Assembly: GCA_963727625.1 (NCBI GenBank)
Contig: CAVSHR010000005.1
Coordinates: 96,001-160,000 of the forward strand
Reading direction: 5' to 3'
DNA length: 64,000 nucleotides
From: an uncultured delta proteobacterium
Lineage (GTDB): Bacteria > Desulfobacterota > Binatia > UBA9968
Part shown: piece by piece, positions 7,541 to 27,287 of the stretch
How the letters are laid out: each line of letters begins with the position of its first letter
Numbering within the stretch: position 1 is the stretch's first letter
Program-made: the position numbers and the translations under genes
The notes under the pieces: model-generated
The model's input: only the letters and a program-made list of their open reading frames with translations
What the model was told of the DNA's origin: nothing
Database searches by the model: none

Positions 7541-7715
7541 AAATAAGGCTGTCTTCTTTGGTTGCGGCTCCGCCGCGCTGGGTTCGGCAAAGTAATTCGC
7601 CAAAGGCGCGGATGGTTTCTTCGGATTATTTTGATAATTCGCCACTACCCTAACTGAATAACGCAAGCCGATACCGCGGTTGACACCACGGGAATATATC
7701 CGATACTTGGCGCAT

Positions 7716-9107
<1,392 letters not shown>

Positions 9108-9277
9108 CCGTAGCGAGCTGCGGGAATTGTAGCCGCAGCGCCGGAAGCCCGAATTTGGATGGGTCGAGTCCAACAATCTCCATCATCGCTCGCCCTAAAG
9201 ACTTCCCCAAAAGCTAGCCAATCATTTGTGAAATAAGCGCTTGGCTGATAGGGCTGAGGATTGTTCCGACGATTGCG

Positions 9278-10507: not shown

Positions 10508-10593
10508 GGTCGACCCCGCCGCGACTATTATATCGATTCGATTTCGCCGCGTTTTTGTTTATACTGGGTCGATTGAGCTGAATCGACGAATTT

Positions 10594-11673
10594 ATGAAGT
10601 ACCAAACCGACGACCTTAGAATCAAACAAATCAAAGAGTTAGTAACGCCAGCGCAACTGTTGGATGACTTTCCGATCAGCGAAAAGGCAGCCCTGACCGT
10701 TGTCGAAACGCGCCAGGCCATCCACCGCATTCTGCACGGCGCCGACGATCGCTTGCTGACCGTCATGGGCCCCTGTTCGATCCACGACGTGAAAGCGGCA
10801 AAGGAATATGCCGCCAGGCTCAAGGAAGCCAGGGAACGCTGCGCCGACGATTTGATGATAGTAATGCGCGTCTATTTCGAGAAACCGCGCACCACAGTAG
10901 GCTGGAAGGGCCTGATCAACGATCCCAATCTCGACGGCAGCTTTCAGATCAACGACGGGCTGCGCGTCGGCCGTCAACTGCTGCTCGATCTCAACGAGAG
11001 CGGCATGCCCGCCGGCTGCGAGTTTCTCGACATGATCACGCCGCAATACCTCGCCGACCTGGTCTCCTGGGGCGCCATCGGCGCGCGCACCACCGAAAGC
11101 CAGGTGCATCGCGAGCTCGCCTCGGGTCTCTCCTGCCCCGTGGGCTTCAAGAACGGCACCGACGGCAACGTGCGCATCGCCATGGACGCGATTCGCGCCG
11201 CGCAGGCGCCGCATCATTTTCTCTCGGTTACTAAAGCCGGCCATTCGGCCATCGTCTCCACCGCCGGCAACGAGGACTGCCACATCATTCTGCGCGGCGG
11301 CAAACAGCCGAACTACGATGCCGCCAACGTCGACGCGACAGCCAAGAGTCTAGCTGAAGCGGGCATACCGGCGCGCATCATGATCGACTGCAGCCACGGC
11401 AACAGCGGCAAAGAGCCGTCGAAACAAGTCGAGGCAGGCCGGAATGTTTCAGCGCAGATCGCCGGCGGCGATGCGCGCATCTTCGGCATCATGGTGGAAA
11501 GCCATCTCAAAGCCGGCCGCCAGGATCTGCTTCCCGGCAAAGCGCTCGTCTACGGCCAGAGCATCACCGACGCCTGCGTCGGTTGGGAAGACACCCGCAC
11601 CCTGATCGACTCCCTCGCCAACGCGGTGCGCCAGCGCCGCGCAAAAGCGGCGGCCAACGGGGATTCGGAATAG
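10594..11673 (+). CDS. aroG: 3-deoxy-7-phosphoheptulonate (DAHP) synthase, class I-alpha
   Basis: GPCSIHD, RVYFEKPRTTVGWKG, IGARTTESQVHRE, DCSHGNS, YGQSITDAC. Confidence 0.95.
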   Translation: MKYQTDDLRIKQIKELVTPAQLLDDFPISEKAALTVVETRQAIHRILHGADDRLLTVMGPCSIHDVKAAKEYAARLKEARERCADDLMIVMRVYFEKPRTTVGWKGLINDPNLDGSFQINDGLRVGRQLLLDLNESGMPAGCEFLDMITPQYLADLVSWGAIGARTTESQVHRELASGLSCPVGFKNGTDGNVRIAMDAIRAAQAPHHFLSVTKAGHSAIVSTAGNEDCHIILRGGKQPNYDAANVDATAKSLAEAGIPARIMIDCSHGNSGKEPSKQVEAGRNVSAQIAGGDARIFGIMVESHLKAGRQDLLPGKALVYGQSITDACVGWEDTRTLIDSLANAVRQRRAKAAANGDSE

Positions 11674-11849
11674 ATTTCGCCGGATCGTCCGATCATCAGT
11701 ACCAGATCGCGTCTTTCTCGGGGCAACAATCGATCCACAGAGTTGTTTCGTCGCGTAGTCAATTCGTGCCGGCTGATATAGAGCTGCCGTGAGGCTGTTT
11801 GCTGATTTACTGGATCTGAAGATCGTTACACAGGTCAACCGCCATTCTG

Positions 11850-12184
11850 TTCACCGCCAGCCTGTCAATTTTGTTTTTGCTCTTTGGCAACTCCATCGGC
11901 CATCTGTGGATTTTCATCCTGCTATTCACCACGGTTGAAGCGACCTATCCGGTCGCGTGGGCGATGGTCGGCGATATTTTCGGGCGCAAGCACTTCGCCA
12001 AGATTCGCAATTACATGAGCATGTTCTACGTCTGGGGCAGAGCGTTCTCGATCCAGTCACGGCCGGAGCGATTTGGGACCGCTGGCAAACTTACGAAACC
12101 ATGCTTTGGGTTTTGGTCGTCATGTTAAGTCTATCGGGAATTTTTTATAGCCTGCTCGGAAAGCCTTGGGCGCAATTAAAATAA
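11850..12184 (+). pseudogene. C-terminal remnant of an MFS transporter, frameshifted
   Basis: VGDIFGRKHFAKIR...YVWG, then a 2-nt AG insertion (~12039) switches to SVLDPVTAGAIWDRWQTY; no N-terminal half. Confidence 0.6.
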
Positions 12185-12194
12185 ATTTAACTTC

Positions 12195-12288
12195 CGTTCA
12201 AGGGTCAAGGGTAAAAGTTCAAGGCTCGACGAAAAGTCTTGAGCAGCGATCCGACACTTTGAACTTTAAATTTTTGAACTTTGAACGG
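12195..12288. repeat. Inverted repeat built from 7-nt tandem units (GTTCAAG / CTTTGAA)
   Basis: cgttcaagggtcaagggtaaaagttcaag ... ctttgaactttaaatttttgaactttgaacg, between convergent genes. Confidence 0.65.
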
Positions 12289-12296
12289 GCGTCGAT

Positions 12297-12617
12297 TTAT
12301 TTTACATGCACCGTGAGCCAAAGGGTTTCTGCGCCGGTTTGTGCGACTCGATGGCGCACGTGGCGCGGGATAACGAGGTAATCGCCCTCTTTCAATTCGA
12401 CGATCTCGCCGTCGGCGAATTCCAACACCGCGTTGCCGCGCAAGACGATCGCCCATTCATCTTCGTCCTGGTCGTACCAAAAGCCCGCGGGGCTGTTGTG
12501 CGAATGGGATAGGATGCGCTCGATTTTGACCGAAGAGTTTTGCCAAAGCGTCGAAAAATTTTCGCCGGCTGCGGCAGCGCCCAGATCGGTGTAAACATTT
12601 TTAACTGGAGCGGTCAT
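12297..12617 (-). CDS. Cupin domain protein
   Basis: IERILSHSH, WYDQDEDEW, GDYLVIPRHVRHRV. Confidence 0.85.
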   Translation of the reverse strand: MTAPVKNVYTDLGAAAAGENFSTLWQNSSVKIERILSHSHNSPAGFWYDQDEDEWAIVLRGNAVLEFADGEIVELKEGDYLVIPRHVRHRVAQTGAETLWLTVHVK

Positions 12618-12740
12618 AATCCTGATCGCGACGCCAACGGTCCCGTCACAAGCTGGCGGCCAGTCTTACCCACATCGCCAGTAAGACCAGGTTGCTAAGC
12701 GCAAAAAACAAAAAGCGCGGCGGAACTCTAATGAACACCA

Positions 12741-13427
12741 TCAGGGCAATGCGGCAGCGCCTTGGTCCATCCCCGCGGCGCGAATATCAGGCACTTCGAC
12801 GATGCGCCGCCGTCCGGGCATTGGCGCATGTTCAACGGCCCGGACCAAAGCCTGCGCCATTTCGTCGATAGTGACCGAGCCAAGCCGCTCAGCGGTCGCG
12901 CGGGTTATCGGAAACAGCTCGGCGAGCTTGTAGAATGACTTGATCAACAGCGGCCACTTCCGGCTCGGACCCAAAATAGACCAAGGGCGCAAGATTGTCG
13001 CGGTCAATTCCGCCTCGCGAATCATGGTTTCGCCAAGGGTACGCACCCAGAGATAGGACTGCATGAACGGCGCCGGCTGAGCGACGCTAACGTAGATCAA
13101 ATGCGCTGTGCCGCGGCGCTTAGCCGCACTCACGACGGCGCGAATTGAAACCAGATCGACCTTTTCAAACTGGTCGGCTTTGCTCGGGCTCGGATGCGCG
13201 GTGCCGACCAGATGAATCACCGCATCGATGCCGTCGAGGGCTGCAACCACGCACTCCGTGTCGAGCGCGTCGCCGAGCACCGGCGTCGCACCGGTGGGAA
13301 CACGCGCGACGGATTTCGCTCGGGCCAGCACTCGCACTCGATGCCCGCGATTCAACAACAGAGGAATCAAGTGGCGACCGATATAGCCGGTTCCTCCCGT
13401 AACTAGGACATTGAGCGGGGTGGGCAT
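12741..13427 (-). CDS. NAD(P)-binding atypical SDR / NmrA-like protein
   Basis: VLVTGGTGYIG Rossmann motif, TILRP. Confidence 0.85.
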   Translation of the reverse strand: MPTPLNVLVTGGTGYIGRHLIPLLLNRGHRVRVLARAKSVARVPTGATPVLGDALDTECVVAALDGIDAVIHLVGTAHPSPSKADQFEKVDLVSIRAVVSAAKRRGTAHLIYVSVAQPAPFMQSYLWVRTLGETMIREAELTATILRPWSILGPSRKWPLLIKSFYKLAELFPITRATAERLGSVTIDEMAQALVRAVEHAPMPGRRRIVEVPDIRAAGMDQGAAALP

Positions 13428-13767
13428 ATTTTTCCAGTTGGAAGACTTGTCAAATTAACGCTCGCCGTACACTTTTCCGTATGGCAGATAACGCCTACTT
13501 TGTCACGTTCCTGTTCAGAGCGATCACAGAGTCGATCGCATCATAGCCTATTGCCTATTGCCGCTACGGAGAGCTTTGGCGCTTCGCCGAGCCAATTCAG
13601 CGAGGGGCCTCGATCGGAGAATGGAATGACCGCCTTTCGAATGCGATTTCTGGAGAACGACGCGCAGGCTGTGAGTAGATCATCTCCGGACCGGAATGTC
13701 AAAAAATTTGCCCGGTATTTTCTACTCCGTCGGTTGCAATAAACGGGTCATTCGATAGTGTAAAAAA

Positions 13768-15096
13768 GTGAAGTCCCTAGCCAAGCTGCGTAACGATGCG
13801 ATGAGCATTTATCACGCCGGCCTGAAGGCTGCCGATCCCGCCAGCGCTATTCTGCGCCACGTCAAGCTTGTGGGAGACCAACTCGAGGTCGGCGAAAAGT
13901 GCTATCATCTCGCTCAGTGCAGTGCCCTTTATGTGGTCGGTGCTGGCAAAGCATCGGCGCAGATGGCGCTGGCCATAGAACAGATTCTCGGCAACCGATT
14001 GAGCGGCGTCGTTAACGTGAAGTACGGCCACGCCGTAGCTCTCAAAGCCATCAAAGTCAACGAAGCCGGCCATCCGTTGCCGGACGACGCGGGAGTGCGG
14101 GGCACCCAGGAGATCCTTCGGCTTCTGCAGCACTGCGACGAACGAAGCTTTGTGGTCTTTCTGGTTTCGGGAGGGGGATCCGCCCTCCTACCCTGCCCGG
14201 CGGACGGTTTGACCCTCCAGGATAAGCAACGAACAACGCAGGTTTTGCTCGAATGCGGCGCGGCCATTCAAGAGATCAACGCCGTGCGCAAACATATATC
14301 CCGAGTCAAAGGTGGCCGGTTAGCGAAGGCGGCATACCCGGCGACGGTCGTGTCGCTCATACTTTCCGATGTCGTGGGCGACACTCTCGACAGCATCGCT
14401 TCCGGTCCGACCGTCCCCGACTCCAGCACATTCCCGGATTGTATGCGCGTAATCGAACGGTATCGCATTCAAGAAAAGATTCCGCCCGCTGTAAGTCAGC
14501 ATTTGCAGAGGGGCGCGAAGGGCGAGATCGAAGAGACTCCTAAACCTGGCGATCCGGCGTTTCAAAGAGTCCAAAACCTGATTGTCGGAAGCAACCGACT
14601 TGCGCTGAGCGCTGCGAAGGAGCAAGCGGAAGAGTTAGGTTACCACGGGCTGATCCTTTCCAGCCTTATCCAGGGTGAAACAAGAGAAGCGGCGGGTATG
14701 CACGCGGCGATTGGCAAAGAGATTCTCGAAACCGGCAATCCCGTTTCCCGCCCCGCCTGCGTCATCTCCGGCGGCGAGACCACCGTGACAATCCGCGGCA
14801 AAGGCCTCGGCGGCCGTAACCAGGAATTCGCCCTGGCCGCAGCCATCGGCATAGACGGCTCGCAAGGGATCGTCATGCTAAGCGCCGGTACGGATGGCAC
14901 GGACGGGCCCACGGATGCGGCGGGCGCGATCGTCGATGGCACTACACTGCAAAGAGCGAAAGACAAAGGGCTGGATCCCGAACGGCATCTAGCCGCCAAC
15001 GATTCGTATCATTTTTTTCAACCGCTTGACGACCTGCTCGTCACCGGTCCGACATTCACGAATGTGATGGATCTTCGGTTGGTGCTGGTGGAATGA
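13768..15096 (+). CDS. Glycerate kinase type 2 (GckA/TtuD, DUF4147 + MOFRL)
   Basis: GAGKAS, AGHPLPD, SGGGSAL, SDVVGD, GGETTV, GGRNQE, GTDGTDG, TGPTFTNVMD. Confidence 0.93.
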   Translation: MKSLAKLRNDAMSIYHAGLKAADPASAILRHVKLVGDQLEVGEKCYHLAQCSALYVVGAGKASAQMALAIEQILGNRLSGVVNVKYGHAVALKAIKVNEAGHPLPDDAGVRGTQEILRLLQHCDERSFVVFLVSGGGSALLPCPADGLTLQDKQRTTQVLLECGAAIQEINAVRKHISRVKGGRLAKAAYPATVVSLILSDVVGDTLDSIASGPTVPDSSTFPDCMRVIERYRIQEKIPPAVSQHLQRGAKGEIEETPKPGDPAFQRVQNLIVGSNRLALSAAKEQAEELGYHGLILSSLIQGETREAAGMHAAIGKEILETGNPVSRPACVISGGETTVTIRGKGLGGRNQEFALAAAIGIDGSQGIVMLSAGTDGTDGPTDAAGAIVDGTTLQRAKDKGLDPERHLAANDSYHFFQPLDDLLVTGPTFTNVMDLRLVLVE

Positions 15097-15235
15097 GAGG
15101 GGAGTTTGGCGTCCCTCGGTGATCGCCGTCTTTTTGAGCGCATCAAGGGAGGGAAACGGAGCGAAATGAGTTGAGCTTCGTGAATTCATCGACCGCGGCG
15201 ATTGCCGCTGATTAGACTATCTTCTGGGGGATCAT

Positions 15236-15886
15236 GTGAAAATCAGACCGGTCCTTATGGTCGTGGACATGCAAAACGGCTTTTGCGGCTTGGGCGGGAC
15301 CTTCGACAAGTTCGGTTTCAACATCGCTCCCTACCGCGCGATCATTCCCGCTTTGCAAAACCTTATCGCCGAGATGCGCCGCTTCGGCATGCCGGTGTAC
15401 TACTCGAAAGCGATCCGGGAAAAGTCGGGCTTGGACTGCATAGACAGGGTCCATCGGATTATTCCCGAGAGCCGGCGCGAGCGAATCGAGAAACTGCCGC
15501 TCTGTATCCGCGGGACCTGGGATAGTGACGTCATCGATGAACTCCGACCCGAACCCAACGACTTCATCGTCGAGAAGAGACGGGATTCCGTTTTTCAGGA
15601 CACAGAGTTCGATCTCTGGCTCAAGGCTTTTCGAGCCGATACGGTGATCTTCTGCGGCATCGATACCTACGTATGCGTCGAGAGTTCGGTCAGGGAAGCC
15701 TTCAACAAAGGGTACGACGTGATCGTCGCAAAAGACTGCGTCGCGTCGCGAAATCCGCGGCACCACGAAACCTCCCTCGATCAAGTCGAAGAAGCTTTCG
15801 GGTGGGTTTTGAATTCCGCCGAGCTGATCGAAAAAATCCAAACCGGCCAATTCGTTGTATCATCGGACGAGGAGGCGTCGGCCTGA
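15236..15886 (+). CDS. Isochorismatase-family cysteine hydrolase (amidase-like)
   Basis: Triad motifs VVDMQNGF, EKRRDSVF, GIDTYVCVESS. Confidence 0.9.
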   Translation: MKIRPVLMVVDMQNGFCGLGGTFDKFGFNIAPYRAIIPALQNLIAEMRRFGMPVYYSKAIREKSGLDCIDRVHRIIPESRRERIEKLPLCIRGTWDSDVIDELRPEPNDFIVEKRRDSVFQDTEFDLWLKAFRADTVIFCGIDTYVCVESSVREAFNKGYDVIVAKDCVASRNPRHHETSLDQVEEAFGWVLNSAELIEKIQTGQFVVSSDEEASA

Positions 15887-15936
15887 GAGATTGGGTTTCG
15901 GCGACTCACTAAACTATCGCGGGAAGGACAATCAGC

Positions 15937-17247
15937 ATGGCGATTAGAAAATACGATTCCGCTCTCAGGGAAAACGTCCACATGTGGGTCAATAAGATCA
16001 AGACCGTCGACGTTCTGGTGGGCATTCCCTGCTTTAATAACGAGGATACCATTGGATTCGTGATCGAGCAGGTCAGCCGGGGATTGGCCGAGCATTTTCC
16101 CGATCTGAACACCGCGGTGTTTGTCTCCGACGGCGGGTCGCTGGACAACACACGGGAGTACGCTTATCAAGCCGCCGGGCCTGAAAACGTGCAGCGGCGT
16201 GTTACCATTTACCGGGGCATGCCTGGAAAGGGCACCGCCTTTCGCGCGATCTTCGAAGTCGCCACGTTGTTGCGGGCCAAAGCGGTGGCCGTCGTGGATT
16301 CCGATTTGCGTAGCATTACGCCGGAATGGGTCAAACTGCTGATCGAACCGATCCTCAATAAATCTGCCGGATTTGTGGTGCCGTTTTACCGGCGCCACAA
16401 GTTTGACGGCACCATCACCAATCAAATCGTTTACCCGATGACCCGCGCCCTATATGGCGTTGACGTTCGCCAGCCGATCGGCGGAGATTTCGGCTTCTCG
16501 CCTGAGCTCGCAGCGTTCTATATGAAGGAGGATGTTTGGGACACTGACATCGTGCGCTTCGGCATCGACATCTGGATGACCACCTGCGCCATCAACGAGG
16601 GCTATCCGGTGGTTCAAACTTATTTGGGGACAAAGGTGCATGATGCCAAGGACCCGGCGGCCGATCTTGGCCCCATGTTCCACCAGGTGATCAGCACGCT
16701 TTTTTATCTCATGGGCAAGTACGACCGCAATTGGCGCCGAGAAAACACCCTTAAGTTGATTCCGGTAAATAGCAAGAAGGACAGCGATGCCGAGTTGGCG
16801 CCGATTTCCGTGAGTCTGAACAGCCTCCATACGGAATTCGTTGAGGGATTCAACCACTTTCGTCCCATCTACGAGCAGATTCTCAGCCCCGAGAACTACG
16901 CCGCACTGGCCGACATCCACAAGGCATGGCAAGCAAACCAAGACCGAGAGATTCAACCCGAACTGTGGAGCAAGGTCCTGTACGACTTCGCTTGCGTGTA
17001 TCAACTGTGGAACCGAAACCGGCGCCACTTGGTGGATATGATCACGCCGCTGTACTTTGGCCGCACCAAAAGTTTTTGTCAGCAGGTGATGGATATGAAC
17101 TATGCCCAGGCCGAAGAGATGGTTTTGGCGCAGGCTAAAGTGTTCGAGCAGAACAAACCTTATCTCCTGCGCCGCTTCGCTGAGTGGAAGGCGAAAGAAG
17201 CGGAGGAACAGAAAACGGAAATCGAGGCATCCATCACAGGGGCCTAA
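15937..17247 (+). CDS. Glucosyl-/mannosylglycerate synthase-like glycosyltransferase (Ggs/Mgs-like, GT-A fold)
   Basis: VGIPCFNNEDTI, DGGS, GKG, DSD, RHKFDGTITN, RQPIGGDFG, FGIDIWMT; AAGGA RBS. Confidence 0.8.
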   Translation: MAIRKYDSALRENVHMWVNKIKTVDVLVGIPCFNNEDTIGFVIEQVSRGLAEHFPDLNTAVFVSDGGSLDNTREYAYQAAGPENVQRRVTIYRGMPGKGTAFRAIFEVATLLRAKAVAVVDSDLRSITPEWVKLLIEPILNKSAGFVVPFYRRHKFDGTITNQIVYPMTRALYGVDVRQPIGGDFGFSPELAAFYMKEDVWDTDIVRFGIDIWMTTCAINEGYPVVQTYLGTKVHDAKDPAADLGPMFHQVISTLFYLMGKYDRNWRRENTLKLIPVNSKKDSDAELAPISVSLNSLHTEFVEGFNHFRPIYEQILSPENYAALADIHKAWQANQDREIQPELWSKVLYDFACVYQLWNRNRRHLVDMITPLYFGRTKSFCQQVMDMNYAQAEEMVLAQAKVFEQNKPYLLRRFAEWKAKEAEEQKTEIEASITGA

Positions 17248-18260
17248 TCCCGCAACGGCAAGGCTATCGGCCCACGGGTCTCGGCCGAGCGATAGGCCGC
17301 AATCATGATTTCGAGCGCCGCCCGCGCGTCTGCCCCGGTGATTGCGGGCTCGTGATCTTCCTCGACGGCGGAAATAAACTCGTTGACCAACCAGCTTATA
17401 TCGGCGCGCCACCAGGGTACTCGCTCGCCCTTGCTCCCGTCGGCCAGTTCGAAATCATGATAGGGTTTGCTGATCAGAGCGGCTCCTTGCGTGCCCAACA
17501 CTTCAAAGCTTACGCTAAGCCAGGTCGGATTTCCCGCGGGGTTGGCCCAGCCGCTTTGCTGGGAAGCAACCACCCCGTTTTGAAATTCGATCAGCATCGT
17601 GCCGATATCGTCGAGATCGATGTCGGTGTGAATCATTCGGTCGATCCTGGCGTAGACACTTTTCGCTTCCGCTCCCGCCAACCAGCGCAGTGCATCGATG
17701 GCATGAATACCGATGTCGCCGAACCCCCCGAAGCCCGCCCGGGTCTTGTCGAAAAACCAGCTGGTGTCGAGCCCCGCAATACCACGGGGAATTTTGCCGT
17801 ACTTGGTCGCATGGATATGCTTGAGCTCTCCGAGCTCGCCCCGATCAATCAGTTCTTTGAGTTTTATCACCGGCAGCTGATAGCGAGGATTAAAGGGGAC
17901 CATCAACTTGACGCGGTGCTTGTGGGTGAGATCGAGGATCTTATCTGCGTCTTGCAGCGTGGTAGCCAGAGGCTTATCGCACAAGATGTGAATTCCCCGC
18001 GGCGCCAGCTCTTGGACAACACTGAGGTGTTGGTCGGGAGGGGTGCCGACGTAGGCGGCGTCAATCCTCTCTCCGTCCCGTAGCGGCCCGAGCGCTTCGA
18101 GATATCTTGCCCCGAACCGTGTGGCATCCTGCCGAGCGAGCGGCCGATTAAGTCCCGGAGCTACGATCGCCGCAAGCCGGGCCCGCGGATGTTCCGCGAT
18201 TGCTGGGACATAGCGCGGCAGGTGCGCATGGTCGTATCCAACGATGGCAAAATTCAGCAT
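17244..18260 (-). CDS. Gfo/Idh/MocA family oxidoreductase
   Basis: ILCDKPLA, FNPRY, GFGGFGDIGIHAID. Confidence 0.9.
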   Translation of the reverse strand: MLNFAIVGYDHAHLPRYVPAIAEHPRARLAAIVAPGLNRPLARQDATRFGARYLEALGPLRDGERIDAAYVGTPPDQHLSVVQELAPRGIHILCDKPLATTLQDADKILDLTHKHRVKLMVPFNPRYQLPVIKLKELIDRGELGELKHIHATKYGKIPRGIAGLDTSWFFDKTRAGFGGFGDIGIHAIDALRWLAGAEAKSVYARIDRMIHTDIDLDDIGTMLIEFQNGVVASQQSGWANPAGNPTWLSVSFEVLGTQGAALISKPYHDFELADGSKGERVPWWRADISWLVNEFISAVEEDHEPAITGADARAALEIMIAAYRSAETRGPIALPLRD

Positions 18261-19282
18261 GGTACGGCTCCCCTGAGCGCGACCGGTTGTCCGGTGGCGG
18301 CGGATTCGAGAGCTTTGGCGATTACTTCGACGGCGCGGTAGGCATCATCGAGAGTGATTCTCGGTGCGATCTTACGGGAGATACCGTCGATGAAATGGGC
18401 CAACTCGCCGACAAAGGCTTCAGGATATGTGCTGAGCAGCGGCGAGTATCGCGGCACCTCGGGTCTCTCTTTAATCACCAGCAGCGGCGCGGAGTCATGG
18501 TCCGTGAGCGTCAGTTTTCCTTTGGTCCCAATAATTTCGAGCGAGGAATAAAACGGGGCATATTCTTTAGGGTGCGCCCAGCTCACCTCCATGAGCCCTT
18601 GCTGTCCCTTGGAAAAGCCGACTTGCACGAGCGCAAAATCGAGGCAGCCTTTCTTGCGCGCCTCTGCGCGCACCGAGAGACCTTTCGTGTACACTTCGGT
18701 AGCGTCCGAATCGAAAAACCACGCGAAAAGATCGGCGACATGGACACCGAGATCCATAAGCACGCCGCCGTTGTGCGGATCCCACCGCCAGCTGTCTTCG
18801 GCGAATCCCGCCCAGCTGCGCTCGCTCCAGTGCATAGAGACCGGTTCGCCAATACGACCGGCTGCAAGTTGCTCTTTCACCCCGACCCAGCGGCGGTCGA
18901 AGCGGCGGGTGTGGCCGATGTAGAGATGGCGGCCGGATTCTTTGGCCGCCTCGATCATGCGCGCGGCATCCTCGATCTTCAGGGCCATGGGTTTTTCACA
19001 GATGACATGCTTGCCGGCGCGCAGCGCTTTGATCGCCAGCTCCGCATGGCTGGGATGAGGCGTGCAGATGTCGACGAGATCGATACCATCGCTGGCCAGC
19101 AGCTCATCGAGGGAAGAAAAAGACTTCGTGATACCCAGCTCCGCCCTGGCCTGATCCGCCCGTTCCTTGATGATATCGCAGGTCGCGATCACCCGCGCCT
19201 GTGGAATTTGCCGCCAGGCGGGGGCGTGCGCTAGGCGGAAGATACCTCCGGTGCCGAGAATCGCGACCTTGAGATCGTTCAT
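18254..19282 (-). CDS. Gfo/Idh/MocA family oxidoreductase
   Basis: GTGGI, HVICEKP, GHTRRF, GGVLMDLGVH. Confidence 0.92.
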   Translation of the reverse strand: MNDLKVAILGTGGIFRLAHAPAWRQIPQARVIATCDIIKERADQARAELGITKSFSSLDELLASDGIDLVDICTPHPSHAELAIKALRAGKHVICEKPMALKIEDAARMIEAAKESGRHLYIGHTRRFDRRWVGVKEQLAAGRIGEPVSMHWSERSWAGFAEDSWRWDPHNGGVLMDLGVHVADLFAWFFDSDATEVYTKGLSVRAEARKKGCLDFALVQVGFSKGQQGLMEVSWAHPKEYAPFYSSLEIIGTKGKLTLTDHDSAPLLVIKERPEVPRYSPLLSTYPEAFVGELAHFIDGISRKIAPRITLDDAYRAVEVIAKALESAATGQPVALRGAVPC

Positions 19283-20892
19283 TGAGCTAGGCCCTTCGCT
19301 TCGCTCGTGCCGTCGAAAATGTGAATCTGGTGTTGACGGGTGATCTCGACCAAGAACGCGGCCATCTCCGGAGTACCGTATTTTTCTTCCAGGTAACGAT
19401 AATTGCTGCCGTAGTCAGTTACCGAGATATCGGGCACTTCGCGGCCGGAAAAATGCTTTTCAGCTAGAGATTGAATGATGGCGGGAATCGCGCTGCCGTC
19501 CTGAGCCCGGACCTTTTCGCCTTTGGCGATAAAGGGCGGGACCCCCTGCCGCAGGGCGAATTCCCGATGCACCCACTTGCGCACCGCGTCCTCGGCGTCT
19601 TTGACCTTGAGCCGAGGCGAAATCTGCATGGCCGTGCGGATGACATCCCGATCCAAAAACGGAGCTCGCAGCTCGATGCTGTGCGCCATAGTCATCCGAT
19701 CCTCCCGCTCCAAAGTGTCCAGATATAATTGGCTGATGTCCTCCCACATGCGCTTATGCAGAGTCAGGTGGCCGTGCTCGGCGACGACGTTGCAGTACCA
19801 GGAATAACCACCGAACAGCTCGTCCGCACCCTGCCCGCTCAATAAAACTTTATGGCCGTCCGCAGCGGCCATTCTCGCCGCCAAGAACATCGGCACCGCC
19901 GCTTCGACCTGTACCATGCCGTTAAGCTCAATGGCTTCGATGACCGCGGGCAGCACATCCTCAACGACCTCGTCGCTGAGGTAAGTCGTCCGCAGAGGAA
20001 TATTCATTAGCTCTGCGGACTGTGTCGCGTTCTCCACGTCCAGAGAGCCGCGCACACCGGCGCAGTAACCGGTGACGTCGACGCCGCGGTTCTTGACCGC
20101 CTTGGCGACCAGGGTGCTGTCAACTCCGCCCGACAGCAACACCGCTGCCCGGTTCAGTCCAAATACCCGCTTATCCATCGCTCGATCGAAGACGATACCG
20201 TACTCGCGGATCGCGCTTTCCATATCGGTCAAGCGGATCGCAGATTCCTCGACCCGATAGCCTTCTTGCACTGAAATGCGATTGCAGTCGACGATAAGCA
20301 TATCGCCGGGATGAAGCCTCTCGATTTCACGGCCCGCTCCCCTGAGCGCTTTGGGCTCAGAAGCGAAATAGAACGGAAATCCCTCAACGTAATAGACCGG
20401 CTTCTTGCCGACGGGATCGCGGGCGACGACAACACATCTCCCGTCCGTCACCGCAAAGGCGTACATCCCGTCGAGCAGCGGCATGGCCTGCTTCACGGCC
20501 GCGGGCAGATCTCCCTGATAAAACTCCTCGATCAAATGCACGAGTATTTCGCTATCGCTATCCGTGAGGACGCGGTGATGCGCGAGCAGCTGGCGCAGTT
20601 CGCGGTAATTGTAGATTTCACCGTTGTGGATGAGCGACAACTTTCCATGGCAGGAAGAAAGCGGCTGCAATCCCGTCGGACCGCCGACGATTTCGAGCCG
20701 GGCGTGACCGAGACAAATCATGCCGGTGCGCGGCGGCTTGGAAATTTGCGACAATCCTTCTCCCTGTTCGATTCTCCCATCGACGTATAAGCCCACCGCG
20801 TCCGGCCCGCGGTGGCGGGTCTGAGTGAGCATGGACAGAGCCTCTCCAACATTCCTTGGCCGCTTATCGACAAAACCGATAATCGAACACAT
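19279..20892 (-). CDS. AsnB-like glutamine-dependent amidotransferase (asparagine synthetase B family)
   Basis: N-terminal nucleophile Cys (MCSI), HRGPD, HNGEIYN, DSDSE, LSGGVDS, SGQGADELFGGY, RAPFLD; AAGGAGG RBS. Confidence 0.9.
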   Translation of the reverse strand: MCSIIGFVDKRPRNVGEALSMLTQTRHRGPDAVGLYVDGRIEQGEGLSQISKPPRTGMICLGHARLEIVGGPTGLQPLSSCHGKLSLIHNGEIYNYRELRQLLAHHRVLTDSDSEILVHLIEEFYQGDLPAAVKQAMPLLDGMYAFAVTDGRCVVVARDPVGKKPVYYVEGFPFYFASEPKALRGAGREIERLHPGDMLIVDCNRISVQEGYRVEESAIRLTDMESAIREYGIVFDRAMDKRVFGLNRAAVLLSGGVDSTLVAKAVKNRGVDVTGYCAGVRGSLDVENATQSAELMNIPLRTTYLSDEVVEDVLPAVIEAIELNGMVQVEAAVPMFLAARMAAADGHKVLLSGQGADELFGGYSWYCNVVAEHGHLTLHKRMWEDISQLYLDTLEREDRMTMAHSIELRAPFLDRDVIRTAMQISPRLKVKDAEDAVRKWVHREFALRQGVPPFIAKGEKVRAQDGSAIPAIIQSLAEKHFSGREVPDISVTDYGSNYRYLEEKYGTPEMAAFLVEITRQHQIHIFDGTSEAKGLAQ

Positions 20893-20993
20893 GGGCTGAC
20901 GCCTCCTTGTTTAATCGTTGGCAGATCAAGGTGAATTTATTCGTAATCATGATCTTTAGGGGAAGAACCCGATAGCGTGCGATAATCAGGCGT

Positions 20994-21055
20994 AAAAAAA
21001 TTCAGGGCTTTTCTCACTTCCGGAAAAACAGCGCCGGAACGGGAAAAGCCCTGAA
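20994..21055 (-). terminator. Terminator-like hairpin with a U7 tract in the leader of the AsnB-like operon
   Basis: 13-bp perfect stem ttcagggcttttc/gaaaagccctgaa plus inner ttccgg/ccggaa, followed on the minus strand by T7; T-rich on the plus side too. Confidence 0.6.
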
Positions 21056-21090
21056 ATAATTTTTTAGAAACTAATTCACGAGACCTTTTT

Positions 21091-21119
21091 AAGCTAACAT
21101 CTCGACTCTGGCCTGTCAA
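21091..21119 (-). promoter_or_regulatory. Putative sigma70 promoter for the AsnB-like operon
   Basis: Minus strand TTGACA-17 nt-(TGt)TAGCTT. Confidence 0.55.
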
Positions 21120-21595
21120 ACTAAACATCCTTCGAGTCGTGGCTCAGTTTGAGCGCACCGAGCAATCCTTTTGTCACAAACGTTGCACCGCGGATTCGAT
21201 CCTGAGCCCCACCGGAAGACCCCGAATGACAAAGAAGGCGAACCGTCGTTTCGAACTCTTCGATCGGGACACAGGGTAAACTTCATGGGCGAGCTTGAAC
21301 TAACTCAATCACGAGTATCCCTCGCCGCGACGCCGCGGCATTTCAAACATCTCCGCAAGGCAGATTACGTTGCTGCAGAGCCGCAGCTTCAACGCCGCCG
21401 AGAAACAAATTTTGCGCGATCGCGCCGTCGTTTTTTTCTTCTTTCAGGTTGTATAAACCCAGGCGATTAAATATAACCGATGAAGAAACTTCTTTGGCCG
21501 TGCGTCGCAGACGTTTCCGTCTATTTATTCCTCGCTGTTGCATTTATCGGGTACAGTGCCTGCGCCGCAAATCAGGCGGCATCGATGGATGATCC

Positions 21596-23458
21596 ATGGA
21601 ACTGTTTAAGAAGATTCTCATTCCTCTGACCGGTCCCGACCAGGTTTTGCCGTACTTCAAGCTGGCGGCGGCGCTGCTGCCGCCGGAGGGAAAAATTTTG
21701 GCGCTCGGCGTCGTGCGGGTTCCGGAAGAAAACTCCCTCAGTGAGGGAGCTGAAGAGGCGCTGCGCTTTCGGGCAACCCTGGAAGAGTGCAAACCGCAGT
21801 TTCCGGACGAACGGGTCGAGTTGAAAACAATCGTGCGGGTGACTCACCATCTCTCCGAAGGAATCGCGGAAACAGCCAAGCAGGAGTCCTGTGATCTTTT
21901 GTTGCTGCCCTGGAAGGGCTATGCCGCTTCGCAAGAACATCTCTTCGGGGCGACGATCGATCGCTTGCTCGATCAACCCCCGTGCGCGATCGCGGTTGTG
22001 CGATTGGAAGGATTCGCGGAGTGTCGCAATATCCTTCTTCCGGTTCGCGGCGGGCCTTATGCGGAATTCGCCCTCGCGGTCGCGAGTGGCCTGGCTCAGT
22101 CTTTGGGCGCTGAAGTAACCGTGCTGCATTGCGAGACAACATTCTCTGAAGCAGAAATCGAGGATTACCCTTATCGCTCGTTTTTGCACAAACTGCGGGG
22201 CCATCCTCAGGTCAGACGGCTGCTTACCGTTCAAGGCGATCCGAAGCATGCGATCGTCCAAGAAGCAAAAAGACATGACATGGTCGTGGTCGGTGCGGGC
22301 GCGAGCACCGAGCCGACCGCTTCGTTTTTGGGTCCGGTCGTGGAGCGGATCGCAATCGAGTCGCAGACACCCCTGCTCGTGATCAAAACGCCGGGCTCTC
22401 TCAAGCCGTGGCTGCGGCCAGAGCATGACTTGGGCAGTCGGCCCAAACCTCTGTCCGAAAGGGTGGACAAATGGTTTGCCGAAAACACTTTTCATCGCGG
22501 CGAGTTCAACGATCTGCAAAAACTGGTGGACCTTAAGCTTAAGCAACAATTGACCGTTAGCCTTGGCTTGCCTGCTTTGAACGAAGCGGAGACCGTGGGA
22601 AGGATCATCGGCACTATCAAAAAAGCCCTTGTGGACGAAGTACCGCTGTTGGACGAAATTGTCCTGATTGACTCCCGTTCCACCGACGATACCGTCGCGA
22701 TTGCCCGCGATCTTGGCATCGACGCCTTCGCGCATCAGGACATTCTGCCGCAGTACGGGGAGAGACGAGGCAAGGGTGAAGCTTTGTGGAAGAGCCTCCA
22801 TCTGCTCAAGGGCGACCTGATCGTTTGGATCGACACCGACATCAAGAACATTCACCCGGGCTTCGTCTACGGTATCCTCGGGCCACTCCTGACGGAACCG
22901 GAAATCCAGTACGTCAAAGGTTTTTATCGCCGCCCGATCAATGTCGGGGACAAAACCTACGCGGAAGGTGGCGGGCGCGTCACCGAGCTTACGGCCCGGC
23001 CGCTCTTCAATCTCTTTTTTCCCGAACTATCGGGAATCATCCAGCCGCTGGCCGGCGAATACGGAGGGCGCAGGTCGGTGCTCGAACGGGTTCCTTTTTT
23101 TGTCGGATACGGCGTCGAGACCGGCCTATTGATTGATCTTTTCAGTCAGTACGGCCTGCAGGCAATTGCTCAGGTCGATCTAGAAGAGCGCATCCACCGT
23201 AATCAGTCTCTCCCAGCGCTGAGCCAGATGGCGTTTGCGATCATCCAGGTGTTCATTCAGCGGCTTGAGGAAAAGAACCGGATCAAGTTGATGGAAGAAG
23301 TCAATCAAAGTATGAAGCTCATCCGGCACAAAGAATCCACCTACGCGCTCGACGTCAAAGACATTCGAGACCAGGAGCGTCCGCCGATAATTTCGGTTCC
23401 AGAATACCGTGAGCAACGCCGGCAATCGTCCGCCGCCGGAGGCGCCACGCGCATTTGA
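21596..23458 (+). CDS. gpgS: Glucosyl-3-phosphoglycerate synthase fused to two N-terminal universal stress protein (USP) domains
   Basis: N-terminal KKILIPL...LFGATIDRLL and ILLPVRGGP...FLGPVVERI (USP x2); C-terminal LPALNE, DSRSTD, GKGEALW, DTD, KGFYRRP, GGRVTEL, QPLAGEY, YGVE, HRNQ. Confidence 0.88.
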   Translation: MELFKKILIPLTGPDQVLPYFKLAAALLPPEGKILALGVVRVPEENSLSEGAEEALRFRATLEECKPQFPDERVELKTIVRVTHHLSEGIAETAKQESCDLLLLPWKGYAASQEHLFGATIDRLLDQPPCAIAVVRLEGFAECRNILLPVRGGPYAEFALAVASGLAQSLGAEVTVLHCETTFSEAEIEDYPYRSFLHKLRGHPQVRRLLTVQGDPKHAIVQEAKRHDMVVVGAGASTEPTASFLGPVVERIAIESQTPLLVIKTPGSLKPWLRPEHDLGSRPKPLSERVDKWFAENTFHRGEFNDLQKLVDLKLKQQLTVSLGLPALNEAETVGRIIGTIKKALVDEVPLLDEIVLIDSRSTDDTVAIARDLGIDAFAHQDILPQYGERRGKGEALWKSLHLLKGDLIVWIDTDIKNIHPGFVYGILGPLLTEPEIQYVKGFYRRPINVGDKTYAEGGGRVTELTARPLFNLFFPELSGIIQPLAGEYGGRRSVLERVPFFVGYGVETGLLIDLFSQYGLQAIAQVDLEERIHRNQSLPALSQMAFAIIQVFIQRLEEKNRIKLMEEVNQSMKLIRHKESTYALDVKDIRDQERPPIISVPEYREQRRQSSAAGGATRI

Positions 23459-24306
23459 ACACCGCGCACCTCATCGTTATCACCGACCTCGATGGCACCC
23501 TTTTGGATGCCGATAGCTACCGGTACGACGCCAGCTTGCCGGCCGTGCGCAGACTTCAGGCGCTAGGAATCCCTCTCATCCTCTGTTCGAGCAAGACGGC
23601 GAGCGAGATCAAACGTTTGCGGCGGGAGTTGGGGCTCAGAGATCCGTTCATCTGCGAAAACGGCGGCGCCGTGTATTTTCCAAAAGGCTATTTCCCCTTT
23701 CCCGTCGCCGACGCGAAAGTTCAAGGAGATCTGGAAACGATCGCCCTCGGAACGGAAATCACAGTCCTGCGCCGCGCGTTGAAAGAAAGCATCCATGGCC
23801 TGACCCTGCGCGTTCGCTCCTTCGGCGAGATGAGCGTCGAGGACGTTTCGCAATTGACGGGACTTCCAAGGGAGCAGGCCTCATTGGCCCTGCAGCGCGA
23901 GTATGACGAGCCGTTTACCCTTGAAGGCAAAGACTCGGAGCGGCTGTTCGCGGTTCTCCGAAGCAGAGGCTTGCCCGTGACCTTTGGGGGGCGACTGTAC
24001 CATCTGACCGGAGGACACGACAAAGGTCACGCGGTGAGACGGCTTCACGCACTCTATCGCAAGCTCGATCCCGCTTGCGTCAGCGTGGGACTTGGCAACT
24101 CGGCGAACGATCTGCCGCTGCTTCGGGAAGTCGATCGTCCGATCCTGATTCGAAACGCCGATGGGTCCTATGACAAAGACGTGCTACGGGCGATGCCGCA
24201 GGTCGACAGACCGCTGGAGCGCGGCCCCGTTGGCTGGAGCGCGGCTATCGCGAAAATTCTCGCCGAAAACGAGCCGCAAGGCAGAACAAGCCAACCGGAA
24301 AAATAA
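23455..24306 (+). CDS. mpgP: Mannosyl/glucosyl-3-phosphoglycerate phosphatase (HAD IIB)
   Basis: TDLDGTLL, CSSKT, ENGG, REYDEPF, DKG, GNSAND; start overlaps the gpgS stop. Confidence 0.85.
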   Translation: MNTAHLIVITDLDGTLLDADSYRYDASLPAVRRLQALGIPLILCSSKTASEIKRLRRELGLRDPFICENGGAVYFPKGYFPFPVADAKVQGDLETIALGTEITVLRRALKESIHGLTLRVRSFGEMSVEDVSQLTGLPREQASLALQREYDEPFTLEGKDSERLFAVLRSRGLPVTFGGRLYHLTGGHDKGHAVRRLHALYRKLDPACVSVGLGNSANDLPLLREVDRPILIRNADGSYDKDVLRAMPQVDRPLERGPVGWSAAIAKILAENEPQGRTSQPEK

Positions 24307-24499
24307 GCTTGAGAACTCCGACGGTAACAGCGCATAACAATCCGTCTCTTTTTCAAAGCGAATCTCGGTTGGCGCATTTTCAACGACTCGGCCGAATTAG
24401 AATACGCCGCGCCAATCCCGGAAAGTATCGTATCGCACCGCCCCTATATCAACTTCGGCAGGCCGTTGTTCTGCGGTTCGTAGCCGGGAGCTTCCTTGC

Positions 24500-24750
24500 G
24501 GCGCCGATGGCGCCGCCGATCTATTGATCGTACCACTTCGTGCCCACCTCCTCGTTGTACCATTTCACCTGCTCGGTTCCGTCCGCGGCCTGATCCTTGA
24601 CCGACTCGTCAAATCGCCGCACGTTGGTTTCCACTTGCGGTTCGGCGGTAAAGCTTCGTCCGCGGGCTTGTTCCAGGTACCGTCGAAGCACAAAACGACT
24701 CTCTTCCTGGCAAAACCTCTTCGTCGGACTAGTTTACTTTTTCGCGGCAA
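24500..24750 (-). pseudogene. DUF2235 (Tle1-like alpha/beta hydrolase) N-terminal remnant
   Basis: KRVVLCFDGTWN, then a frameshift (~24638) to ETNVRRF...QVKWYNEEVGTKWYDQ*IGGAIG with an in-frame TAG at 24521-24523. Confidence 0.65.
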
Positions 24751-24896
24751 CTCATGCGACCACCGCGGTCGGTAGCGACCCGCAGCTCAGCTGCGACTTA
24801 TCGACGCAGCTTCGTTATCCGGACCAATGGTTTTCCCGAGCTTCGCAGGAAAGCGACAATTGCGATTGGACGCGAGCGCTCCGGCCAGCCGATTAA

Positions 24897-26597
24897 TCAG
24901 GCGAACCACTGCTTTTGCTTGAGGATATATTCCGCCGTGCGATAGCTCAACGCCGCCACCGTCGCCGTCGGCGGATAACCGGCCATGGTGGGAAACACCG
25001 ATGAGCCGACGATAAACAGATTCGCAATATCATGAGTCTGGCAATATTCGTTAACCACCGAGTTTTTCGGCTCGGCACCCATCCGGGTGCCGCCGGCCCA
25101 GCGGTTGGGACGGCCTTTTTCCTCAGTCCACACTTTGCTTGCACCGGTCGCCTTCATGATCTTCTCGCCGACGCCGGCCATGAATTTTTGCAAACGCCGC
25201 TCGTTCTGGTGGAACTCGAACGTAACTCTGGGCAACGGCAAACCCCAGCGGTCGCGATGACGTGGGTCGAGGTCGACGCGATTGTTGGGGTGCGGCAAGG
25301 TTTCCGGCTGCATGTTGAGATCCATCGTCCGACTGTAGTAGCGGGTGAAAAATTCTTTGAACTCTCTGCCCCAGGGCCGGACGTCGGGCGGCAACACATC
25401 GATTCTCGTCACCGGCGAGCCGTCACCGCTGGTGCCAATGGTACCGCCGCGAATGAAGCCCACCCCGGTGTGATCGAAGTTGTTGCCGTTGAAGTCGTCG
25501 ATGCGCATCGCCGCCGACCCCGGTCCGATGAAACCGTTGATGATGTAATCGTCGAATACACCCATGGCGCGCACATCACCGTGCGCCAAAATGTTGCGGC
25601 CGACGTAACCGCTGCTGTTGGCCATGCCTTTGGCAAATCGGCCTCGACCCGTCTTCGACAGCAGCAACAGACGCACATGCTCGAAAACAAAAGCGCTTAA
25701 GATGACCACCCGGGCTTGCTGTTCGTGCGGCCGGCCGTCGGCGTCGAAATAACTCACCCCCGTCACCTGCCCGTTACCATCGCTATTGATATGATAAACT
25801 TTCGCTTTAGTTTTGAGATCGAAATTACCGGTCTCAAGCGCCACAGGGATGACGGTATAAAGGGAAGCTGATTTGGCGTGGACATGGCAGCCGTAGAAAT
25901 TGCAATGGCCGCAGTAGACGCACGCCGGCCGCTCGGGAATGCGCGTGTCGAACGGCTCGGGCGGTCGATAAGGTTGGGAGAGAATACCAGCGGAAGTGTC
26001 GTAAGCGTGATAGCCCAATTTCGCGCATGCCGCGGCGAACAGCTTCATGCGTGCCGAGTGGCGCAGCGGCGGCAGCGGAAAACCGCGCTTGCGCGGCCCG
26101 GCGAACGGATTGGCCCCGGCCACGCCGGATACGCCGAACTCCCACTCAAATCGCTCATAGTAGGGTTCCAAGTCGTCGTAGCTGAGAGGCCAATCGATGA
26201 TATCGTAACCAGATAAATCCGCTCCGGCGCGCGCGGCGTTGCCGTTTTCAACCTCGTTGGTGAAAAGCTTGAAGTCGCCCGGCATATAGCGCGACGACTG
26301 TCCGGTCCAGTGCAGCAATGCGCCGCCGAGCACATTGAGCGGGCTGGTGCGATACTGCACTCTGGTCTTTTCGTCGGCCTTGCTCCGCGTCGTGGTGGGT
26401 TCGTCGCGCACCCACTCCAGCTGTTCGGGGCGGATAAGAAAACGAATCGAATCGCGCGGCGCGTAGTCTTCATGCTTGGGCGCTGGCCCGCGCTCGAAGC
26501 CTACGACCTTCAACCCGGCCGAGGCAAGTTCCTTCGCCATGATTCCACCCAATCCGCCAACGCCGACAATGCATACATCCGCGATTGTTTTGCTCAT
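24897..26597 (-). CDS. GMC oxidoreductase, gluconate 2-dehydrogenase flavoprotein-like
   Basis: VGVGGLGG, DWPLSYDDLEPYY, CVYCGHCNFYGC, GGTRMG, NLFIVGSSVFPT, PTATV. Confidence 0.88.
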   Translation of the reverse strand: MSKTIADVCIVGVGGLGGIMAKELASAGLKVVGFERGPAPKHEDYAPRDSIRFLIRPEQLEWVRDEPTTTRSKADEKTRVQYRTSPLNVLGGALLHWTGQSSRYMPGDFKLFTNEVENGNAARAGADLSGYDIIDWPLSYDDLEPYYERFEWEFGVSGVAGANPFAGPRKRGFPLPPLRHSARMKLFAAACAKLGYHAYDTSAGILSQPYRPPEPFDTRIPERPACVYCGHCNFYGCHVHAKSASLYTVIPVALETGNFDLKTKAKVYHINSDGNGQVTGVSYFDADGRPHEQQARVVILSAFVFEHVRLLLLSKTGRGRFAKGMANSSGYVGRNILAHGDVRAMGVFDDYIINGFIGPGSAAMRIDDFNGNNFDHTGVGFIRGGTIGTSGDGSPVTRIDVLPPDVRPWGREFKEFFTRYYSRTMDLNMQPETLPHPNNRVDLDPRHRDRWGLPLPRVTFEFHQNERRLQKFMAGVGEKIMKATGASKVWTEEKGRPNRWAGGTRMGAEPKNSVVNEYCQTHDIANLFIVGSSVFPTMAGYPPTATVAALSYRTAEYILKQKQWFA

Positions 26598-27121: not shown

Positions 27122-27287
27122 CGGCGCGTTGAATCTCCTGTGCGAAGTTGTCCTTCCTCCATAGCAGAAATCGGCAGCAAAAAGGTAGCGGTAGCCGAGC
27201 CCGACCATCTACCCTAGACGCAATCAACTCGTTGCCTGCGGATAAATTTAAAAACAGGGAATGATTACGGCAAGTCCGTCATGATGT

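Follow-up and report, generated by a model that had tools for sequence, protein, structure and literature searches.

AsnB-like proteins of a separate clade as candidate glycosylglycerate amidotransferases paired with cysteine amidohydrolases

We analysed a 64,000-nt stretch of DNA (hereafter the window; positions 96,001 to 160,000 of contig CAVSHR010000005.1, assembly GCA_963727625.1) from an uncultured bacterium of the Desulfobacterota (Binatia), in which eight genes in three transcription units occupy 13768-24306 (coordinates of open reading frames, ORFs, within the window). One of them encodes a protein resembling the asparagine synthetase AsnB, and it stands among genes for glucosylglycerate synthesis and near a gene for an isochorismatase-type hydrolase. 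From a comparison of proteins and gene neighbourhoods, we consider it very likely that the family of this AsnB-like protein belongs to glycosylglycerate metabolism, and rather likely that the enzyme is a glycosylglycerate amidotransferase that forms an amide on the glycerate carboxyl. That the hydrolase is an amidase reversing this amidation is plausible, at a little short of an even chance. The wider proposal strikes us as evenly balanced: the clade would comprise the missing glycosylglycerate amidotransferases, including Rmar_2386 of Rhodothermus marinus, each with a cysteine amidase as a switch between anionic and neutral solute; the amidases would have been recruited at least twice from unrelated folds, osmotic balance would be tied to nitrogen supply, and glucosylglyceramide is predicted. 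An earlier note on this DNA had suggested the amidation, and comparative genomics now supports it through a distinct clade, an altered substrate site, pairing with amidohydrolases, co-location with glycosylglycerate genes, and an orthologue in R. marinus.

The AsnB-like protein did not score as a canonical asparagine synthetase. Against the AsnB equivalog model NF006949 (cut-off 499 bits), it reached 268.1 bits vs. 1050.3 for the Escherichia coli AsnB control, while the R. marinus orthologue reached 281.5 and an MpgS-adjacent relative from genome G141 reached 266.2. The broad model TIGR01536 accepted the protein (303.6 bits, cut-off 267.1) with only model positions 1-379 of 517 matched. This leaves the substrate unfixed because the model also takes in five long paralogues of the same genome, which match it over its full length at 484-530 bits. 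The genome holds seven Asn_synthase-domain genes in all.

At the level of individual residues, the AsnB-like protein looks like an active amidotransferase, equipped for both glutamine hydrolysis and acyl-adenylate formation. It has the features of a class II glutamine amidotransferase with a PP-loop, namely a Cys directly after the Met, an SGGxDS loop, and the domains PF13537 and PF00733, and this Cys2 is invariant in all 17 aligned members. In an alignment with E. coli AsnB from the K-12 record, which covers residues 3-489, the positions kept are Cys1, R49, N74, E76, D98, the SGGxDS loop (G235, D238, S239), D351, E352, R387, and K449 in E. coli numbering. Five others have changed in the window protein (T322Q, R324E, E348Q, K376D, and D384T), and the same or similar residues occupy them in all context-defined groups of the family. 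We take these five positions to be ones that shape aspartate binding and adenylate formation. R324, E348, and D384 are kept in E. coli AsnB and in seven of eight Flavobacterium-type rows of the alignment, together with T/S at 322 and K/R at 376; the eighth row, L091, keeps only R324 and E348. At the acyl-substrate site of the AsnB-like protein, two basic residues are gone and acidic and polar ones have appeared.

Phylogeny gave the same separation. The tree comprised 73 rows and was rooted on the genome's long paralogues, after omission of 23 of the 31 Flavobacterium-type loci, seven fragments, two exact duplicates, and paralogue L006. The AsnB-like protein fell within a clade of 58 rows, and E. 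coli AsnB lay with the Flavobacterium-type proteins in a clade of 10; the branch between the two measured 1.21 changes per column, with a Shimodaira-Hasegawa-like approximate likelihood-ratio (SH-aLRT) support of 100. The comparison with true AsnB that had been suggested earlier therefore found no grouping with it, but a separate clade whose window member fails the equivalog cut-off and carries changed substrate-site residues. By sequence, the AsnB-like protein is not an aspartate enzyme. Its clade is spread patchily across bacteria, ANME-1 (anaerobic methanotrophic) archaea, and other archaea.

Several members from ANME-1 and Methanosarcinales depart from the pattern in the glutamine site, with R49E and D98N/S/G. 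Loci L023-L027 (ANME-1 / Methanosarcinales-type) keep Cys1 and have Glu for R49 and Asn or Ser for D98, and L028 and L055 have Gly at position 98; these members may use a different nitrogen donor. A Scalinduaceae-labelled locus (L044) holds another AsnB-like gene at 16056-17405, more distant (31% identical) and 4.5 kb downstream of the family member. Apparent fusions of AsnB-like protein and CN-hydrolase in L030, L039, and L042 were ruled out, as the AsnB-like reading frame closes with a stop codon in each (541-549 aa). The other six Asn_synthase paralogues in the window's genome (L001-L006, 606-680 aa) lie on contigs C4, C5, C8, and C11 of that genome (G000). Three of them fall within ~50 kb on C11 among genes of glycosyltransferase family 2 (GT2), in what looks like an exopolysaccharide region, and paralogue L002 passes the cut-off for the XrtA/PEP-CTERM amidotransferase.

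The second element of the proposal is the partner hydrolase. The window's isochorismatase-type protein is a member of its family, with Asp, Lys, and Cys positions that align with those of RutB, and its nearest solved relatives are RutB, biuret hydrolase, and N-carbamoylsarcosine amidase. It scored below the equivalog cut-offs for both RutB (110.9 bits, cut-off 378) and BiuH (99.2 bits, cut-off 370). In six related loci (L017, L018, L020, L022, L144, and L145), its orthologue lies 53-153 nt from the AsnB-like gene. We counted 62 family loci, with counts that are lower bounds on short contigs. In the flanks examined, an isochorismatase-type or CN-hydrolase gene is present in 40 of the 62, within 300 nt in 33 of these, and three further ANME-1 loci have a CN-hydrolase assigned by clustering only. 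The CN-hydrolase is a cysteine amidohydrolase of a fold unrelated to the isochorismatase type, and it shows weak matches to N-carbamoylputrescine amidase and to the NAD synthase domain.

Genes for glycosylglycerate synthesis (MpgS, GpgS, Ggs-like, or MPGP) occur in the flanks examined of 13 of the 62 loci, and in 11 of the 28 whose flanks reach 5 kb or more on each side; in L052 and L053, which are among the 13, a generic GT2 is the only such gene. They are arranged in no fewer than four ways across bacteria and ANME-1 archaea. The window's own arrangement, GpgS and MPGP, the AsnB-like gene with two Gfo/Idh/MocA genes, and the Ggs-like GT2 with hydrolase and glycerate kinase, is shared with L106, L107, and L115. 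A second, running from MpgS and MPGP through a mannosidase of glycoside hydrolase family 38 (GH38), a CN-hydrolase, and an AsnC-type regulator to the AsnB-like gene and an MscS channel, is found in ANME-1 loci L025, L029, and L055. MpgS (PF09488, 495.6 bits), GH38, CN-hydrolase, and regulator are present in all three, the MPGP-type phosphatase in L025 and L029, and the channel in L025. In a third (genomes G167, G141, and G074), the AsnB-like gene is followed by MpgS, a transporter, MPGP, and GH38.

The association also held across genomes. Among 201 genomes of the window's phylum, eight carry the family, three MpgS, and seven a GpgS over the cut-off. All three MpgS genes sit 99-255 nt from a family member, and MpgS or GpgS is present in four of the eight family genomes vs. 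five of the 193 without the family. We found no MpgS and no GpgS over the cut-off in the genomes of L018, L019, L020, and L022, all of the isochorismatase type; L019 has a Ggs-like GT2 in the locus itself. Around lone MPGP genes in CN-hydrolase-type genomes (L148-L151), tblastn revealed no hidden synthase in any of the four, and the ORFs scanned around MPGP in L148 and L149 are unrelated (PAS histidine kinase, panB, lgt, radical SAM protein). Two Thaumarchaeota-labelled loci (L052, at 7423-12312, and L053) show MscS and DUF432 and then three consecutive genes, for a GT2 (238 aa), the AsnB-like protein, and a HAD phosphatase. Their AsnB-like proteins are 35-39% identical to the window's, and their short GT2 is a generic one; they may represent a minimal version of the same pathway in relatives of ammonia oxidisers.

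Judged by gene order, the co-location of the window's genes exceeds chance, because the order of all eight recurs in L107 (AsnB-like protein 86% identical) and L115 (73%), and parts of it recur in L106, L019, and L022. Six of the eight genes are kept in L106, and short contigs retain the unit of the AsnB-like gene and two Gfo/Idh/MocA genes. Retention is partial at 50-54% identity (L017-L020 and L022). There, L019 combines glycerate kinase, pyruvate kinase, GT2, the three-gene unit, a transporter of the SSF family, and two mechanosensitive channels, and L022 joins the hydrolase to the three-gene unit. In L017, L018, and L020, the hydrolase lies 53-95 nt downstream of the AsnB-like gene, followed by an SSF transporter in L017 and L020 (none in L018) and, in all three, by a protein without a Pfam match. 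At 45-50% identity, in Desulfobacterota-type, Nitrospirota-type, and archaeal records, a CN-hydrolase takes the hydrolase slot and is usually followed by a carbohydrate-type ABC transporter. The MscS channels, sugar-type ABC transporters, and SSF transporters that accompany the AsnB-like/hydrolase pair fit an osmolyte. The synteny survey called for in the earlier note thus found a neighbourhood conserved well beyond close relatives, both in its amidohydrolase pairing and in its several glycosylglycerate arrangements.

The window's genome also holds, on another contig (G000:C9:152491-156491), a carbohydrate-type ABC transporter homologous to the one that trails the pair of AsnB-like and CN-hydrolase genes elsewhere (identities: binding protein 53%, permeases 60-61%, and ATPase 52%). 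The window's locus lacks the SSF transporter of L106 and L115, and a search of the genome at E 1e-20 did not find it. With regard to ancestry, metagenome proteins share 71-92% identity with the AsnB-like protein, some of them carrying the label Verrucomicrobiae, Binatia, Terriglobales, or Methylomirabilia, whereas proteins from 200 sampled genomes of its own phylum reach 49% at most; the gene was found in none of five class-mate genomes. We think it probable that the cluster arrived by transfer.

R. marinus was recognised as a source of mannosylglyceramide in the 1990s, and this species is, to our knowledge, the sole known producer. There, alpha-mannosylglyceramide accumulates at high salt and replaces the anionic mannosylglycerate (PMC1224877). 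The Rhodothermus precedent on which the earlier note drew is therefore documented, and the same species carries an AsnB-like orthologue. Among 401 Bacteroidota genomes sampled around the genome of L067, the family was present in two, at 53% identity, and MpgS in 11, including those two. Both family proteins are letter-identical to R. marinus records annotated as asparagine synthase (ACY49264.1 / WP_012844874.1, Rmar_2386; and BBM70705.1), and an exact-sequence look-up listed a further member from strain SG0.5JP17-172. In the R. marinus loci, the AsnB-like gene, an isochorismatase-type hydrolase 50% identical to the window's, and an SSF transporter share one strand, and MpgS-MPGP lies elsewhere in the genome. 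In a tree of 75 rows, the R. marinus proteins branched within the isochorismatase-type clade (SH-aLRT 100) as the sister group of the window's subclade (SH-aLRT 98). A 2024 metabolic reconstruction of this species covers mannosylglycerate only, and according to its Table 3 strain ISCaR-493 lacks an asparagine synthase, RMAR_RS11910 (PMC11730185). From the order of the three chromosomal Asn_synthase-domain genes, we infer that RMAR_RS11910 is the family member Rmar_2386.

In the pathway that we propose, glucosylglycerate would be made in two steps by a USP-GpgS fusion protein and the MPGP-type phosphatase, and probably also in one step by the Ggs-like GT2. The AsnB-type enzyme would adenylate the glycerate carboxyl with ATP and then bring in ammonia from glutamine, yielding uncharged glucosylglyceramide, and the MpgS-adjacent relatives and the R. 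marinus orthologue would make mannosylglyceramide by the same chemistry. We favour the glycerate carboxyl because it is the sole carboxylate of the glycoside and because its amidation gives the documented Rhodothermus solute. The isochorismatase-type cysteine hydrolase would convert the amide back to acid and ammonia, with a CN-hydrolase as its substitute in other lineages, and synthetase and hydrolase together would set the ratio of charged to uncharged solute. Glycerate kinase would turn released glycerate into 2-phosphoglycerate and return it to glycolysis as salvage, and re-uptake and release would fall to the transporters and channels found in related loci. We infer the substrate, the product, the direction of the hydrolase, and the roles of kinase and transporters from genomic association.

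Known systems offer several points of comparison. Like E. coli AsnB (PDB 1CT9) and human ASNS, the window protein joins an N-terminal Cys glutaminase to a PP-loop synthetase, and its chemistry is probably that of AsnB, an acyl-adenylate followed by an amide. It differs in failing the equivalog model, in its separate clade, five substitutions, and patchy distribution, and in its company, with an amidohydrolase in 40 of 62 loci and glycosylglycerate genes in 13. R. marinus resembles the window in its AsnB-like orthologue with an isochorismatase-type neighbour, and it also holds MpgS and MPGP. Because the window's synthases are glucosyl-type (GpgS and Ggs-like) rather than mannosyl-type, the product here would be glucosylglyceramide. 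AsnO places the terminal amide on the osmoprotectant N-acetylglutaminylglutamine amide (NAGGN). It is likewise AsnB-type, but the window protein scored 156.5 bits against its model (TIGR03104, cut-off 570.1) and has no Ngg-type partner. Persephonella marina makes glucosylglycerate by GpgS/GpgP as well as by Ggs, and the window is like it in holding a GpgS over the cut-off, an MPGP-family phosphatase, and a member of the Ggs-named GT2 family in one locus; the USP fusion, amidotransferase, hydrolase, and Gfo/Idh/MocA pair are extra in the window. For the pairing of opposed activities, glutathionylspermidine synthetase/amidase is a precedent, in which amide-forming and amide-splitting activities on one bond occur together and the cysteine amidase is the regulated half, but its folds and substrate are unrelated to those of the window. 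A literature search with subscription journals largely outside its reach turned up neither a gene credited with making mannosylglyceramide nor any report of glucosylglyceramide. As a kind, the enzyme is known, whereas its substrate, its conserved amidase partner, and its distribution would be new.

Other explanations of these results need to be weighed. In the simplest, the AsnB-like gene would be the organism's asparagine synthetase, feeding the asparaginyl-tRNA synthetase (AsnRS) encoded 10 kb away, and its osmolyte neighbours would be incidental. The asnS gene mentioned in the earlier note is indeed present (7680-9107; NF003037, 666.6 bits, cut-off 414). No AsnA was found in the window's genome, none of the six other paralogues there reached the E. 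coli-type AsnB cut-off, and the protein itself passes TIGR01536; in ANME-1 loci, moreover, an AsnC-type regulator is divergent from the AsnB-like gene. Still, five other paralogues match TIGR01536 in full and with far higher scores, and the family turns up in 8 of 201 phylum genomes and in 2 of the 401 from Bacteroidota, too scattered a distribution for a housekeeping role. Together with the changed aspartate-site positions, the separate clade, the consistent amidohydrolase pairing, and the repeated adjacency to MpgS or GpgS, this makes the explanation highly improbable. A gentler departure from our reading keeps the pathway and moves the step, so that the enzyme would amidate free glycerate, a phosphorylated intermediate, or another carboxylate solute made along with glycosylglycerate. 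No second carboxylate-solute pathway was seen in the loci, and the only amide solute reported from R. marinus is mannosylglyceramide (PMC1224877). The genomic evidence nonetheless points to a pathway and not to one intermediate; the window-type cluster holds both a Ggs-like GT2 and glycerate kinase, and CN-hydrolase-type loci have a carbohydrate-type ABC transporter alone beside them. We think a different step quite unlikely, and since mannosylglyceramide could be reached by either order of steps, it would be a variant of glycosylglycerate amidation rather than a contradiction of it.

The hydrolase could also have a role other than reversal. It might free ammonia from another amide donor, much as the CN-hydrolase domain of glutamine-dependent NAD synthetase releases ammonia for the synthetase, or it might remove a carbamoyl or ureido group from substrate or product. 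Most family members, including the window's, retain all glutaminase residues, and a second source of ammonia seems needless for them; the substitutions at R49 and D98 in several ANME-1 and Methanosarcinales members point the other way. The nearest characterised isochorismatase-type relatives act on ureido and carbamoyl compounds, and the weak CN-hydrolase matches to N-carbamoylputrescine amidase and the NAD synthase domain could be read in the same sense. By contrast, the use of two unrelated folds in one slot speaks for one simple chemistry common to both, acting on the same small amide. Co-transcription of opposing enzymes looks wasteful, but genes of synthesis and breakdown do share clusters, as a GH38 mannosidase stands with MpgS in ANME-1 loci. 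On balance, we regard a role other than reversal as unlikely.

Several observations weigh against glycosylglycerate amidation and its reversal as we have drawn them. A synthetase and a hydrolase for one bond in one cluster would form a futile cycle unless regulated, and three MpgS-adjacent bacterial loci have no amidohydrolase within the flank examined. Most CN-hydrolase-type loci contain only the pair and an ABC transporter, and their substrate could differ. Four of the eight family genomes of the phylum (G049, G059, G164, and G191) yielded no MpgS or GpgS with the models used; these have the CN-hydrolase form, except that G049 has only the ABC transporter, and three of the four hold an MPGP-family phosphatase elsewhere. 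Conversely, the family is missing from five phylum genomes that have GpgS and from 9 of the 11 Bacteroidota genomes that have MpgS, which fits an optional modification and gives it no positive support. At one of the five altered positions, 324, the R. marinus protein has Gly instead of Glu. Finally, the counts lack independence, since many of the 62 loci belong to genomes that are related.

The eight gene positions and families named in the earlier note were borne out by the ORF calls and by Pfam and NCBIfam searches, and are listed in Table 1 with the intergenic region that separates two of the operons.

Table 1. Features of the candidate glycosylglyceramide locus, in window coordinates.
Feature	Position	Strand	Basis
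DUF4147 + MOFRL protein, glycerate 2-kinase-type, 442 aa	13768..15096	+	Pfam, 299 and 147 bits
Isochorismatase-family cysteine amidohydrolase, 216 aa	15236..15886	+	PF00857, 156 bits
GT2 glycosyltransferase, distantly GpgS-like, 436 aa	15937..17247	+	PF00535
Gfo/Idh/MocA oxidoreductase A, 338 aa	17244..18260	-	Pfam
Gfo/Idh/MocA oxidoreductase B, 342 aa	18254..19282	-	Pfam
AsnB-type glutamine amidotransferase (GATase_7 + Asn_synthase), 537 aa	19279..20892	-	PF13537, PF00733
Divergent intergenic region between AsnB-like operon and USP-GpgS operon, 703 nt	20893..21595	.	coordinates
Two USP stretches fused to GpgS, 620 aa	21596..23458	+	Usp, 81.5 bits; NF010496
MPGP-family HAD phosphatase (glucosyl- or mannosyl-3-phosphoglycerate phosphatase), 283 aa	23455..24306	+	TIGR01486

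The AsnB-like gene and the two Gfo/Idh/MocA genes very probably form one operon, because they overlap by 4 bases (AsnB-like gene and B) and 7 bases (B and A). The start of the phosphatase gene likewise overlaps the GpgS stop codon by 4 bases. The USP-GpgS protein is a GT81-type glucosyl-3-phosphoglycerate synthase by its score against NF010496 (386.3 bits, cut-off 262), and the same fusion occurs in L107, L115, and L133. The phosphatase exceeds the cut-off of TIGR01486 (234.6 vs. 164.75 bits) and stays just below that of the narrower TIGR02461 (240.1 vs. 244.35 bits). The glycerate-kinase-type protein matched the NCBIfam glycerate 2-kinase models (archaeal equivalog) under their cut-offs; its gene also occurs in L106, L107, L115, and L019, next to a pyruvate kinase gene in the last. 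An Rfam scan of 11500-25500 gave no family at the gathering score. Directly after the phosphatase gene, on the minus strand at 24897-27208, lie genes for a GMC oxidoreductase (566 aa) and a gluconate 2-dehydrogenase subunit-3-type protein. This pair is probably outside the module, because it was not found in the matching flanks of L107, L115, and L133.

The GT2 protein is not a member of the GpgS family by NF010496 (70.9 bits, cut-off 262) and matches GpgS chains in the PDB at E 2e-12. It is probably a single-step, Ggs-like glucosylglycerate synthase, a likeness taken from the JGI names of its homologues: 4 of the 120 listed, at 57-88% identity, carry the label "glucosylglycerate synthase." We rejected the idea that this GT2 tracks the AsnB-like family. 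It was present in all five genomes checked, which is uninformative because the Ggs-like GT2 family is common, occurring in 95 of the 201 genomes of the window's phylum. Its identification as MggA of the mannosylglucosylglycerate pathway was dropped as well, MggA being a 530-aa GT4 enzyme (PMC3736172). Between the Ggs-like GT2 and the hydrolase, L115 has a gene for a glycogen/starch-synthase-type GT5 (15095-16555, plus strand), which may supply or compete for ADP-glucose.

The Gfo/Idh/MocA pair is kept directly after the AsnB-like gene in 11 of the 62 loci and is confined to glucose-type clusters, whereas mannose-type clusters carry the GH38 hydrolase instead. PDB matches of both proteins include inositol dehydrogenases, DgpA, anhydrofructose reductase, and aldose-aldose oxidoreductase, a range that does not fix the substrate. 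For protein B, the matches to DgpA glycoside 3-oxidoreductases reach E 3e-34 over the N-terminal half, alongside inositol dehydrogenases. From this weak likeness to glycoside 3-dehydrogenases, our guess would be that the pair forms an oxidative route acting on the glucoside.

The locus and its relatives offer a concrete and cheaply testable candidate pair of synthetase and amidase. If the proposal is true, a large set of proteins whose present annotation is asparagine synthetase would gain a function, and glucosylglyceramide would be a natural solute not yet described. There would also be enzymes for producing neutral glycosylglyceramides, which differ from the acids in how they stabilise proteins (PMC6240254). 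The distribution of the family suggests that a switch between acid and amide may extend far beyond Rhodothermus, to uncultured methane-oxidising archaea and sediment bacteria among others.

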